A stretch of DNA of 5,591 nt from a virus (taxonomy: Duplodnaviria; Heunggongvirae; Uroviricota; Caudoviricetes): the IMG/VR virus record IMGVR_UViG_2675903394_000001, positions 1 through 5,591 of that record. One strand, given 5' to 3'. This document shows, in pieces, positions 1-5,591 of the stretch; position 1 is the stretch's first letter; every line of letters starts with the position of its first letter. Under the pieces are notes generated by a model, which saw only the letters and a program-made list of their open reading frames with translations, was not told where the DNA came from and made no database searches. A program made the translations under genes and the position numbers.

Positions 1-3410
<3,410 letters not shown>

Positions 3411-3439
<29 letters not shown>

Positions 3440-3917
3440 CCGCAAATTCCTTCATTTTTTCAGCAGATTCAACGCATTTATTAGCTCCCTTCGCAACAAG
3501 CTCTTTCAGATAAGCCAATTGTCTGCCTGTCAACTCAGGGAATTTTCTTTGCATCGAAAGCGGAATACTGTCCAGAACAGATGCCAGTTCTCCGGATAAC
3601 CGGGACAGTGCAAAAACAGAGAAAGCGGTATCAATCACTTTATGCTCTGCAACCTGGTTTTTTAACCGCTGAGCAATAGCCTGTTCTTCCGTCAGATTAA
3701 CCCTGGCCTGAAGTAGCCTTTCCTCAAGGTCATTTTCACCATCTGAAGATTTCTGGTTTTGCTGACGTCGCTCGCGATCTATCTCCAGTACAGTTTTAAC
3801 GTCATAGAAAACCTCTCTCCCCCGGCGCTCAACAGGAGGGACACCCCATTTATCAAATGCCTGTACTGAGATACCGATGGAGGAGGCCATGTCGCTTTTA
3901 TTCAATAAAAAGGCCAC
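3411..3917 (-). CDS. Nu1: Terminase small subunit, Nu1 family but strongly diverged from lambda Nu1
   Basis: The track ORF 3411..3941 (TTG start) translates to ...LNKSDMASSIGISVQAFDKWGVPPVERRGREVFYD...TAFSVFALSRLSGELASVLDSIPLSMQRKFPEL.... This aligns with lambda Nu1 (NKKQLADIFGASIRTIQNWQEQGMPV...TAFCTFVLSRIAGEIASILDGLPLSVQRRFPEL) at roughly 35-40% identity by eye. Position is immediately downstream of cos and the 3' end overlaps the gpA start, as in lambda. Start is uncertain: I favour GTG at 3917-3915, which has GGAGGA 4 nt upstream; alternatives are TTG 3905, ATG 3890 (which would truncate helix 1 of the winged HTH) and the track's TTG 3941. Confidence 0.75.
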
Positions 3918-3947
3918 AGCTCCTCCATAAACCACCGGCAAAAAAGC

Positions 3948-3959
3948 AATACAACAACC
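3948..3959 (+). repeat. cosB repeat copy 3 (R1-like), aatacaacaacc
   Basis: 12-bp motif about 30-40 bp upstream of the candidate small-terminase start codons. Confidence 0.5.
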
Positions 3960-4016
3960 CCGTTTTTTGTAAAACCCTCTGATTTTACATGCTTTTTCGT
4001 ATAAGAAAGCTCATCA

Positions 4017-4028
4017 GGTTGTTGTATT
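4017..4028 (-). repeat. cosB repeat copy 2 (R2-like, inverted), ggttgttgtatt on the plus strand
   Basis: Exact reverse complement of aatacaacaacc (3948-3959); inverted relative to the two flanking copies, like lambda R2. Confidence 0.5.
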
Positions 4029-4072
4029 TGTTTTTCTTTCTTATTACTTATCAAGTAGATATATCAAACGAT

Positions 4073-4084
4073 AAAACAACAACC
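4073..4084 (+). repeat. cosB repeat copy 1 (R3-like), aaaacaacaacc
   Basis: 12-bp motif aWacaacaacc, about 39-50 bp from the cohesive end; 11/12 identical to the copy at 3948-3959. Confidence 0.5.
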
Positions 4085-4110
4085 ACCACCTCAAAAAAAC
4101 TCATAAATAG

Positions 4111-4140
4111 CGAAAACCCGCGAGGTCGCCGCCCCGTAGC
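4111..4140 (-). other. cosN terminase nicking site; 12-nt cohesive end GGGCGGCGACCT on the minus strand = plus 4123-4134
   Basis: Reverse complement of 4099-4140 is GCTACGGGGCGGCGACCTCGCGGGTTTTCGCTATTTATGAGT, which contains the lambda cohesive-end sequence GGGCGGCGACCT and the lambda left-end continuation CGCGGGTTTTCGCTATTTATGA (recognised from memory). Confidence 0.9.
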
Positions 4141-4170
4141 CTGCCGGATCGCCGGAAAGGACCCACAAAA
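4141..4170 (-). other. Right-end flank of cosN, expected to contain cosQ
   Basis: Reverse complement TTTTGTGGGTCCTTTCCGGCGATCCGGCAG closely resembles the lambda right-end terminal sequence (...GGGTCCTTTCCGGTGATCCGACAGGTTACG) as I recall it. I cannot place the exact cosQ bases. Confidence 0.35.
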
Positions 4171-4342
4171 ATGATAATAATTTCATGTACATAATGTTCA
4201 TCACAACGATGTTGTGTACGCCATCAAACCACGACAAACAGTTAATTATGCAGCAGATATCGTATTAATTGATCCGCATCAAGTTAACGTAAAAGCAACT
4301 TCAGACAATACAAATCAGCAACACTGAATATGGGGCAACCTT

Positions 4343-4537
4343 ATGTCATCGAAGAACAGAACCCGAAGAACAACAACCCGCAACATCCGATTTCCAAACC
4401 AGATGATTGAACAAATTAATATTGCTCTTGACCAGAAAGGTTCAGGGAATTTTTCAGCGTGGGTCATTGAATCCTGCCGACGGAGACTAACGTCAGAAAA
4501 GAGAGCATATACATCAATCAAAAGTGATGAAGAATAA
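4343..4537 (+). CDS. Small ribbon-helix-helix (CopG/Arc/MetJ-like) putative DNA-binding protein, 64 aa
   Basis: ATG at 4343 with a GGGG stretch 7 nt upstream, TAA stop at 4535-4537. The protein MSSKNRTRRTTTRNIRFPNQMIEQINIALDQKGSGNFSAWVIESCRRRLTSEKRAYTSIKSDEE has a basic N-terminal arm, a predicted beta strand (RNIRFPNQM) and two helices (IEQINIALDQKG; NFSAWVIESCRRRL), typical of RHH folds. I recall an almost identical ORF in the lambda right-end region carried on cosmid vectors, differing only by conservative substitutions. Confidence 0.6.
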   Translation: MSSKNRTRRTTTRNIRFPNQMIEQINIALDQKGSGNFSAWVIESCRRRLTSEKRAYTSIKSDEE

Positions 4538-4797
4538 ACATCCCGGTTTCTTCCACCATCGCACCGGAAAAGCGACTATGAGGGTAAACCTGCGTCCGTC
4601 AGCGCAGTAAAACCCGGTGTGCATCGTTTTTGATTATTTCCACACACTCACGCAGAAGGAATTCCCCGTCGGGCTACGGTCATGGTTAATGCGGGAATAC
4701 GGCGACGATACAGCGCATGATGTGTCAGGGTTGAATACCTTTATCCGTTAAAAGGGATATCAGTTAAGTTATCCCGTGTAGGGTATAAGCCATTATC

Positions 4798-4819
4798 AAG
4801 CCCACCAGTAGATGGGCTT
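4798..4819 (-). terminator. Hairpin 2 nt past the stop of the 85-aa gene; weak intrinsic-terminator candidate
   Basis: Perfect 7-bp stem aagccca (4798-4804) / tgggctt (4813-4819) with an 8-nt loop. No proper U-tract follows on either strand (ttt on plus; GATAATGG on minus), so function is uncertain, and late read-through toward cos would be expected. Confidence 0.25.
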
Positions 4820-4827
4820 TGTAATGG

Positions 4828-5085
4828 CTACTTCGCTTTTGCTTCCGCTCGCTTACGCCGGCGCTCTTCTTTCCTCTCGGCTTTTGCCATGTCCATGAAT
4901 GCCTGCATGATCGAGTTCCGCATCATGTAGCTAACAAAGTGATGATTGACACAGCCGTTGAGGCGCAACTGCTCGCCAAACTCATCCACCGAGGCCAATG
5001 CTTCCATCATGCCCTTCTCGCCTTTCATGAACTCTGAGAAGTCGCGCCCCGCTCTGGAGGCGCATTCAATGACACGATCACTCAT
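4828..5085 (-). CDS. Hypothetical 85-aa protein with a Lys/Arg-rich C-terminal tail, translationally coupled to the upstream KilA-N gene
   Basis: Only long ORF in this interval. The ATG at 5085-5083 overlaps the upstream TGA (ATGA), stop is TAG at 4830-4828. Protein MSDRVIECASRAGRDFSEFMKGEKGMMEALASVDEFGEQLRLNGCVNHHFVSYMMRNSIMQAFMDMAKAERKEERRRKRAEAKAK. I do not recognise the family. Confidence 0.55.
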   Translation of the reverse strand: MSDRVIECASRAGRDFSEFMKGEKGMMEALASVDEFGEQLRLNGCVNHHFVSYMMRNSIMQAFMDMAKAERKEERRRKRAEAKAK

Positions 5086-5591
5086 CCCGGAAGCCCGGGG
5101 ATCGTTATCTGCAACTGGTTAGCCAGGGAGTTAATCTCAGCGACCAACACTGGCTTCGTATAGCGCCATGCCGCCAGCCCTTGTCCGCAGAAGCTCGCCA
5201 TGTCTTTCTTCTGGTCAAACTCATGACATTTCATGTTGAGCTGCGCACTTAAGCTGTTGCGATGCTGAAGTTCTCCGGTGAAGTAGTCATCGAGGACTTT
5301 ATAGGCCGCGTACTTGAACCCGGGGTTTAACCAAGCCGCATAATCGTAAGCAACAAACTTCCCGCCATATGTTCCACCATGTACACCGCGCTCAGTAAAA
5401 ACCACAGATTCGTGGTTTTTCTCCAGCTCAGCTAAGAACTCTTTGGTCTGCTTGTTTCGCAGGTAGTGGTAAGGCGATTCAGATTCACTTTTACCACTGG
5501 CTTTCCACATGTCAGTGAGGCAGATCATTCCTGATTCATCAACACTGAAGTGGTCAACAAAAACTGGCCACCGAGTTAGAGTTTTTCCAGT
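5082..5591 (-). CDS. KilA-N (APSES-like) domain protein, 5'-partial: the reading frame stays open to the right edge of the window
   Basis: Track ORF 5082..5528 begins at an internal ATG, but the 21 codons upstream (TGKTLTRWPVFVDHFSVDESG) have no stop. The region ...FSVDESGMICLTDMWKASGKSESESPYHYLRNKQTKEFLAELEK...GGTYGGKFVAYDYAAWLNPGFKYAAYKVLDDYF fits the KilA-N pattern as I remember it (N.T..cKaaGK...WLR...T.E....L ... GG..GT.....A..fA.WL.P.F). Same strand as the late genes. Confidence 0.6.
   Translation of the reverse strand, partial: TGKTLTRWPVFVDHFSVDESGMICLTDMWKASGKSESESPYHYLRNKQTKEFLAELEKNHESVVFTERGVHGGTYGGKFVAYDYAAWLNPGFKYAAYKVLDDYFTGELQHRNSLSAQLNMKCHEFDQKKDMASFCGQGLAAWRYTKPVLVAEINSLANQLQITIPGLPG

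Follow-up and report, generated by a model that had tools for sequence, protein, structure and literature searches.

The window analyzed in this work is the whole of a 5,591-nucleotide (nt) stretch of a Caudoviricetes genome (IMG/VR record IMGVR_UViG_2675903394_000001, positions 1 to 5,591), at one end of which lie two adjacent late-strand genes, the first encoding a KilA-N/ORF11CD3 protein and the second a protein of 85 amino acids (aa). The pair corresponds to hkbK/hkbL of phage HK620 (NP_112071/NP_112072) and is a functionally uncharacterised cassette, already known and widely distributed among the temperate phages of enterobacteria, which belongs to the "Bro network", that is, the set of domains, including KilA-N, pRha, Bro-N, P22_AR_N, ORF11CD3, and related ones, that are swapped among phage proteins (PMC10111431). 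In the window, the first gene is split by the insertion sequence (IS) IS911; we regard both the identity of the pair and this disruption as practically certain.

The gene pair and its disruption by IS911

The upstream open reading frame (ORF), as read in the window, extends from 5591 to 5082 (minus strand), and the hkbL-type gene, whose 85-aa product belongs to the family phrog_875, occupies positions 4828-5085 (minus strand). The stop codon of the former (TGA, 5082-5084) and the start codon of the latter (ATG, 5083-5085) overlap in an ATGA at 5082-5085 (minus strand; tcat on the plus strand). This direct reading confirms the coupling of two late-strand ORFs that had been noticed in a first examination of the window made without database searches (hereafter, the sequence-only reading). 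An identical ATGA junction is present in HK620, in PhiR49_1, and in 80 viral loci, and both ORFs are real genes and not chance reading frames. In the case of the second gene, this is indicated by the ratio of nonsynonymous to synonymous substitution rates (dN/dS), which is 0.05-0.31 in the comparison with seven homologues; the gene is under purifying selection.

The product of the first gene combines two domains. The KilA-N domain (PF04383; 5277-5540, minus strand), already assigned in the sequence-only reading, was recovered by Pfam with 53.5 bits versus a gathering cut-off of 23.8 (E 2.4e-14); the match begins at position 13 of the 107 of the profile, and the first strands, β1 (residues 3-6) and β2 (residues 9-13), are lost or cut. 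In an intact relative, this domain is predicted to adopt an APSES-like alpha/beta DNA-binding fold. The C-terminal third of the ORF, which that reading did not mention, is an ORF11CD3 domain (PF10549; 5097-5255, minus strand), matched over the whole profile (1-54) with 51.4 bits versus a cut-off of 25 (E 1.3e-13) and predicted to form a helical hairpin of two helices of about 20 residues each. In the AlphaFold2 (AF2) model, these helices comprise residues 110-130 and 134-156 and are separated from the KilA-N domain by a low-confidence linker. No C-terminal ANT/KilA-C domain (PF03374) was matched by Pfam at E values up to 1, and NCBIfam has no model for either protein of the pair. The remaining sequence is 92-96% identical, at the amino acid level, to the intact 165-aa proteins.

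The homology to intact KilA-N genes ends at position 5545, and this is true of every phage record and of every complete E. coli genome. The 46 nt that follow (5546-5591, minus strand) are the right end of IS911, a member of the IS3 family, and comprise the right inverted repeat (IRR) and the last transposase codons with their stop codon (46/46 identity; TGA at 5554-5556, minus strand). Thousands of E. coli sites, annotated as IS911 or as IS3-family transposase, match them with 100% identity; in an annotated example ("IS3-like element IS911 family transposase"), the coding sequence ends 8 nt inside the terminus. The IS911 end in the window begins with 5'-TG, as known IS911 termini do, and more than 119 unrelated viral contigs share a 30-nt piece of it, which is frequently terminal in them and in one case forms an inverted pair. 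A four-way alignment revealed that the IS911 end, ...GACCACTTCA, is directly joined to GTGTTGATGAATCAGGAATG, a sequence of the intact gene that begins with the second base of its codon 12 (..I R|V D E S G M..). What is left of the hkbK-type gene (full product of 165 aa, KilA-N plus ORF11CD3) is, in other words, its 3' part, from the second base of codon 12 to the stop codon (5082-5545, minus strand); the gene is split after nucleotide 34, and its first 11 codons and its ribosome-binding site are separated from the rest by IS911. The in-frame residues TGKTLTRWPVFVDHFS of the six-frame translation are IS911 sequence, in a frame other than that of the transposase, and the true N-terminus is not located just past 5591, as the sequence-only reading had assumed. 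An ORF extended into the IS by annotation pipelines would give a chimeric protein. The transposase gene and the late operon run in the same direction, and the remaining part of the IS lies past the window; the fact that the window ends inside an IS suggests the end of a draft-assembly contig.

The codons of the first gene past the IS911 end contain neither a frameshift nor a stop, and the encoded sequence is about 95% identical to an intact homologue (P0121), which points to an insertion that is probably recent. The junction at 5545/5546 was absent from all the complete E. coli genomes searched. The first in-frame ATG of the remnant is M18 (5528-5526), abutted by AGGA, and the gene would yield, at best, a 148-aa product with a poorly placed start and devoid of β1-β2. 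As for the second gene, its Shine-Dalgarno-like sequence is weak (CCGGG) and lies inside the first one, so that it presumably depends on translational coupling; since the gene to which it is coupled is damaged, its expression is probably reduced in this copy. It would still be reached by transcripts from the IS or by late read-through. A hybrid outward promoter provided by the IS911 end (TTGACC at -35) was considered and discarded, since no acceptable -10 exists at 16-18 nt and no promoter emerged there from the scan. The cassette of the window is an ordinary and probably crippled copy, from which no host-manipulation or anti-defence function active in the source genome should be deduced.

The 85-aa protein and its partners

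The sequence-only reading had found no recognizable family for the 85-aa protein. Pfam and NCBIfam, indeed, hold none; the protein matches, instead, phrog_875 from end to end (positions 1-85 of 85, E 3.2e-54). The family is small (138 homologues in a set of 5.8 billion proteins, and only 21 clusters at 50% identity among 1.84 billion proteins), and all its named sources are Enterobacterales. The exact 85-aa sequence occurs on at least 1000 public contigs, labelled "hypothetical" in every case. According to the AF2 model (predicted local distance difference test, pLDDT, 93.4), the protein consists of three helices (residues 3-20, 26-42, and 48-84). The homologue alignment revealed, in the first one, a motif that is invariant in the family (ECASRxGRDFSxFxxGEK). 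The charged basic tail described in the sequence-only reading does exist: the protein ends in MAKAERKEERRRKRAEAKAK, and its last 20 residues (4831-4890, minus strand), which lie on the C-terminal helix, include 10 K/R and 4 D/E. A possible zinc site (C8/C45/H48/H49) was rejected on the ground that it is not family-wide, C8 being S in P0179 and A in P0189, and C45/H48 being V/S in P0191.

The two genes are found together well beyond the window. Besides HK620, in which they are placed between Rz and two small ORFs preceding the P22-type small terminase subunit, the pair is present in PhiR49_1 (which has a lambda-type Nu1/A), in the Shiga toxin (Stx)-converting phages 1717 and 2851 (in which the first gene is named "kilA"), and in others. 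The copies of HK620, Stx 1717/2851, and PhiR49_1 share with that of the window a 100% identical 85-aa protein, a KilA-N/ORF11CD3 protein of about 92-96% identity, the ATGA junction, and the slot between Rz and terminase/cos; unlike the copy of the window, split by IS911, they are intact. A neighbourhood survey of IMG/VR revealed that the KilA-N/ORF11CD3 frame ends at the start of the 85-aa gene in all the 80 loci that encode an identical 85-aa protein. When the query was the divergent KilA-N/ORF11CD3 protein of phiEt88 (about 50% identity), the small gene was found directly downstream in 72 of 80 loci. These counts support the idea, put forward in the sequence-only reading, that the two genes form a unit, and the same survey speaks against the possibility that their association is peculiar to the window.

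The association also extends to distant homologues of the 85-aa protein, whose genes are still located directly 3' of one encoding a KilA-N or a Rha protein. In phage mEp235 (gp59/gp60), in Klebsiella phage ST11-VIM1phi8.1, and in Scandinavium, Raoultella, and Trabulsiella prophages, the upstream partner is a KilA-N+P63C protein. The small protein of mEp235, of the p55 region of HK022, and of HK97 (p61) is the same as that of the window (95% identity over 66 residues) and occupies the same slot, and the upstream partner of the mEp235-type pairs is likewise a KilA-N protein, but P63C replaces ORF11CD3 and the genes are 2 nt apart, not overlapping; in HK97, the small gene is truncated (77 aa). 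On the other hand, the KilA-N/ORF11CD3 protein of Klebsiella phage RAH1 is followed by a small protein that belongs to the other of the two sequence clades (about 70% identity). Both clades of small proteins pair, therefore, with both KilA-N architectures, which points to a link with the N-terminal domain, or the function, that the latter share.

A third architecture is represented by a divergent member of the family (P0179, profile E 9e-27), whose gene overlaps through an ATGA the end of a Phage_pRha gene; this Rha gene is, in turn, the third gene of an Arc/Arc/P22_AR_N (Ant-like) operon of the P22 immI type. The cluster at positions 154-3154 of locus L299 (also in L300) consists of a divergent Arc/Mnt-like gene, Arc, P22_AR_N, Rha, the gene for the 86-aa homologue (ATGA), and that for a 93-aa putative lipoprotein. 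Neighbours of the Arc/Mnt plus Ant kind were found only around divergent members (L299/L300, L298, and L213, the latter from ST11-VIM1phi8.1), and the window itself harbors neither an Arc/Mnt-type ribbon-helix-helix repressor gene nor an Ant (P22_AR_N/ANT) gene. Lastly, two remote relatives (P0189 and P0191) possess the same N-terminal two-helix domain (hhalign 95.9%) fused to T5orf172/MUG113; one of them adjoins a KilA-N+P63C gene and an Arc/Arc/Bro-N cluster, and the other is placed between the lysis genes and the small terminase subunit. On the basis of these comparisons, the 85-aa domain seems to behave as a further, unnamed element of the Bro network, usually carried by a separate polypeptide.

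Some single loci deserve a brief mention. In loci L224-L229 (e.g., L225, 3040-3213), which represent a subclade of 180-aa KilA-N/ORF11CD3 proteins, a 57-aa ORF with the tail KRNKKR overlaps downstream; it is not a homologue of the 85-aa protein (hhalign probability 0.1%), and it may be an analogous partner. In L003 (4506-4955), which is one of the 80 loci of the IMG/VR survey with the 85-aa protein, the KilA-N/ORF11CD3 gene is frameshifted (149 aa, ending in VTGD) and is followed, after a 46-nt gap, by an intact 91-aa small gene, which represents another sign of decay of the first gene with persistence of the second one, HK97 being the reverse case. The pair is also present, with 99% identity, on a 4-kb contig (L083, JARKOR010000234.1) that was assigned to a "Candidatus Nanosynbacter" metagenome bin; enterobacterial phage DNA has almost certainly been misbinned in this case.

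Genomic setting and expression of the cassette

All the large genes of the window are on the minus strand and in the order of the lambda late operon. They include a Nu1-type small terminase subunit (PF07471, Pfam; 3941-3411, minus strand), a 643-aa large terminase subunit (3445-1514, minus strand), which we take to be very close to lambda gpA, and a small ORF (1517-1311, minus strand) in the same position as the gene annotated as W (head-tail joining) in PhiR49_1. The AT-rich and strongly AT-skewed stretch 3950-4350 is the cos region, in which an exact match to lambda cosN, GGGCGGCGACCT, with lambda-like flanks, is located at 4123-4134 (minus strand). The pair is upstream of cosN on the late strand, at a distance of about 700 bp, at the right end of the genome, and in intact relatives Rz lies directly upstream of it; the exact cosN and the position of Rz agree with the placement between the lysis region and cos that had been proposed in the sequence-only reading.

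Two small genes are convergent with, or face, the pair. The first, a YlcI/YnfO gene (DUF3950; 4343-4537, plus strand), is convergent with it, and the exact sequence of its product has named records only from Escherichia albertii; this hints at the origin of the window and would also account for the lack, among complete E. coli genomes, of one that matches it over its entire length. The second, a 44-aa ORF (4617-4751, plus strand), shares 84% identity with a 53-aa protein annotated as hypothetical in PhiR49_1. In most of the E. coli relatives, ylcI and the 85-aa gene are separated by ybcV (DUF1398; plus strand); a segment of about 460 nt that includes ybcV is missing from the window (4538-4827), and likewise from E. 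coli 2017-02-2CC (H26). Between the convergent 85-aa gene and the plus-strand small ORFs there is a 6-bp GC-rich hairpin (AGCCCA-N8-TGGGCT, 4799-4818), whose T-run is weak on the plus strand and lacking on the minus strand; it is below the threshold of the terminator scan and is retained in PhiR49_1 with a G-U wobble, and a role as a weak, T-poor bidirectional terminator is possible. No RNA families were found in the window by Rfam.

The slot itself is variable. The cassette lies beside unrelated terminases, namely lambda Nu1/A with cos in the window, a P22-like terminase in HK620, and an HNH endonuclease plus the small terminase subunit (TerS) in mEp235, in which the HNH endonuclease adjoins the cassette shortly before the end of the genome; the cassette of Klebsiella and Raoultella prophages, instead, is surrounded by tail genes and is far from the terminase. 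This diversity of terminases and the tail-gene setting indicate that the cassette is an accessory module and not a component of lysis or packaging. The term moron, which the sequence-only reading had applied to its position, is partly justified: the cassette occupies variable positions, either the Rz-terminase slot, with terminases of three types, or a site amid tail genes, and is partly absent (phiEt88-type/L291). In its strict sense the term does not apply, in that neither a promoter and terminator of its own (consensus scans) nor a deviating composition was found, the GC content of the pair (0.51-0.56) being near that of the terminase region.

Regarding expression, intact relatives have 120-340 nt between Rz and the first gene, with terminator-like hairpins, one of which is annotated as a rho-independent terminator in mEp235. 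Consensus scans, the only ones performed, revealed no sigma-70-like promoter in this interval in the intact relatives (including L210 and L002), and around the pair in the window no promoter or terminator passed the scan. The presence of hairpins without a promoter upstream of the first gene fits late read-through expression; the simplest reading is, probably, that the cassette is expressed within the Q-antiterminated late transcript.

Possible functions and comparison with known systems

A remaining question concerns what the two proteins might do. We consider it reasonably probable, on comparative grounds, that they act together. According to the mechanism that we favour, the two products would be made in a fixed ratio and would work as a hetero-complex, in which the KilA-N domain would supply DNA recognition and ORF11CD3, or P63C, would supply oligomerisation or contacts with effectors. 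The small protein would dock on its partner via its conserved N-terminal helices, including the invariant helix 1, and its basic C-terminal helix, which T5orf172 would replace in the fused relatives, would add affinity for nucleic acids. The complex might then be an antirepressor-type or transcription-modulating factor, acting on the DNA and the repressors of the phage or of a co-resident element, and would not have a structural, lysis, or packaging function. A regulatory role is suggested as the most likely one by the finding that part of the family is located in, or beside, immI-type operons, and by the fact that characterised Bro-network proteins act as antirepressors or dual regulators. 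Such a role of the antirepressor type, possibly aimed at co-resident elements, is nevertheless a tentative proposal; the whole explanation, the mechanism included, is in our opinion somewhat short of an even chance.

Several points weigh against this proposal. Literature searches on the gene names and domains of the pair gave nothing functional for either protein; those for hkbK/hkbL and P63C returned irrelevant papers only, and KilA-N and ORF11CD3 appear together only in lists of domains. The fold search with the 85-aa model gave no significant neighbour (best E 1.8 in PDB and 0.22 in BFVD), the matches being generic helical bundles, and hence no functional lead comes from the fold. The immI-like neighbourhood is restricted to the divergent members of the family and may reflect shared late-operon insertion hot spots rather than a shared function. 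Moreover, once the cell is lytic, it is not obvious what an antirepressor expressed late would act on. Finally, the partner is not obligatory, since the small gene is missing from 8 of the 80 KilA-N/ORF11CD3 loci, namely those of phiEt88, L291 (in which an HNH endonuclease follows), and the L224-229 group.

Other interpretations have to be weighed against the same data. The cassette might represent a prophage defence of the BstA kind, in which the KilA-N protein would sense or bind incoming phage DNA and the small basic protein would serve as a co-factor or regulator. BstA of the Salmonella prophage BTP1 is, in fact, an abortive-infection protein whose N-terminal domain is DNA-binding and resembles KilA-N (PMC8585504); the cassette is a mobile accessory element, and the PADLOC scan matched the N-terminal 48 residues of the first product (13-60) to the candidate defence protein PDC-S22 (281 aa, E 5e-9). 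This match, however, covers the KilA-N domain only in part, being confined to its start, and no BstA model was matched in the PADLOC scan, although the content of the library with regard to BstA is unverified. In addition, BstA is a prophage-expressed single protein of about 307 aa with two domains, the C-terminal one being its own, and with the aba DNA element for self-immunity, whereas the first product of the pair is a 165-aa protein with ORF11CD3. Since no promoter of its own was found and the genes lie behind terminator-like hairpins, the expression in the lysogen that a defence needs is not expected. Thus, a defence appears unlikely. As for the host-manipulation or anti-defence function imagined in the sequence-only reading, the partial KilA-N match to PDC-S22 was all that PADLOC returned, and no evidence of anti-defence or host killing was found for the pair.

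The KilA-N domain owes its name to KilA of phage P1, a protein that is lethal to the host, carries an ANT/KilA-C domain, and is encoded in the kilA-repL replicon operon. The two genes might, by analogy, be a kil/anti-kil pair, in which the KilA-N protein would be toxic to the host and the small protein would neutralise or tune it; the tight coupling of the genes, the small and charged second protein, and the weak similarity of the first product to P1 KilA, with which it has the N-terminal KilA-N domain in common (28% identity over residues 11-127), would agree with this. The first product, though, has ORF11CD3 in the place of the ANT/KilA-C half of P1 KilA, and its gene, unlike P1 kilA, is located in a late operon. 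The large protein is encoded first and both partners are strongly conserved, which is atypical of type II toxin-antitoxin modules; no match to families of such modules was found for the pair in Pfam, NCBIfam, or PADLOC, nor was a promoter of its own. Besides, the small domain is also fused to T5orf172 and paired with Rha, which suggests an adaptor and not a specific antidote, and some phages harbor the first gene alone, so that we judge the kil/anti-kil explanation even less probable than a defence. Still more improbable is an accessory role in packaging through binding near cos or the terminase, comparable to that of the HNH endonuclease beside the terminase in HK97-like phages. Both proteins are plausibly DNA-binding and the cassette directly precedes cos/Nu1 in the window, as it precedes the small terminase subunit in HK620, phiEt88, and mEp235; the same cassette, however, accompanies three unrelated terminase systems, is located amid tail genes and at a distance from the terminase in Klebsiella and Raoultella prophages, and is absent from lambda and many of its close relatives, and is therefore not required for packaging.

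One can speculate further that phrog_875 and its T5orf172-fused relatives are a dedicated partner subunit, docking on proteins with KilA-N or Rha N-terminal domains and supplying them with a basic nucleic-acid-binding helix. We rate this extension as rather doubtful; if it were true, many "orphan" KilA-N/Rha proteins of temperate phages would be two-component antirepressor or cross-talk factors, whose targets, at a late stage of the infection, would be co-resident prophages, satellites, or the DNA of the host, and a biochemical handle would be available on a domain network that has been functionally obscure since its definition in 2002. The Bro-network proteins (KilA-N, Bro-N, and Rha) are among the commonest accessory genes of temperate phages, and the role of very few of them is known. 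The fact that one small helical family is consistently coupled to three Bro-network architectures represents a usable lead, in that it names a likely interaction partner, and HK620 or mEp235 would be a tractable system in which the function of Bro-network proteins might be studied. No description of the pairing of phrog_875 with KilA-N and Rha proteins was found in the searchable literature; the pairing, as presented here, is suggested by comparative analysis.

As far as known systems are concerned, there is a likeness to the fungal APSES transcription factors (the DNA-binding domain of Mbp1/Swi4), eukaryotic cell-cycle regulators with which the KilA-N domain shares only about 15% sequence identity and a likeness in fold only. 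Other parallels are offered by phage regulators. Rha and Roi reportedly inhibit phage growth on IHF mutants, for which our literature search gave no usable source. Precedents for small trans-acting antirepressors are the Gifsy antirepressors and P22 Ant (PMC3121763), and a precedent for modular Bro-network regulators is AriS, whose two halves can have separate activities (PMC9043618). Unlike P22 immI (mnt-arc-ant), the window has neither an Arc/Mnt-type repressor gene nor an Ant domain; the likeness to immI concerns the divergent member of the 85-aa family that is the last gene of an Arc-Arc-Ant-Rha operon. P22 immI and the Bro-network regulators are, as the cassette is, accessory genes inside late operons. 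P22 immI, Rha, Roi, and AriS also resemble it in their modular construction, in which N-terminal DNA-binding domains (KilA-N, Bro-N, pRha, or AntA/B in the Bro-network regulators) and C-terminal effector domains can be swapped.

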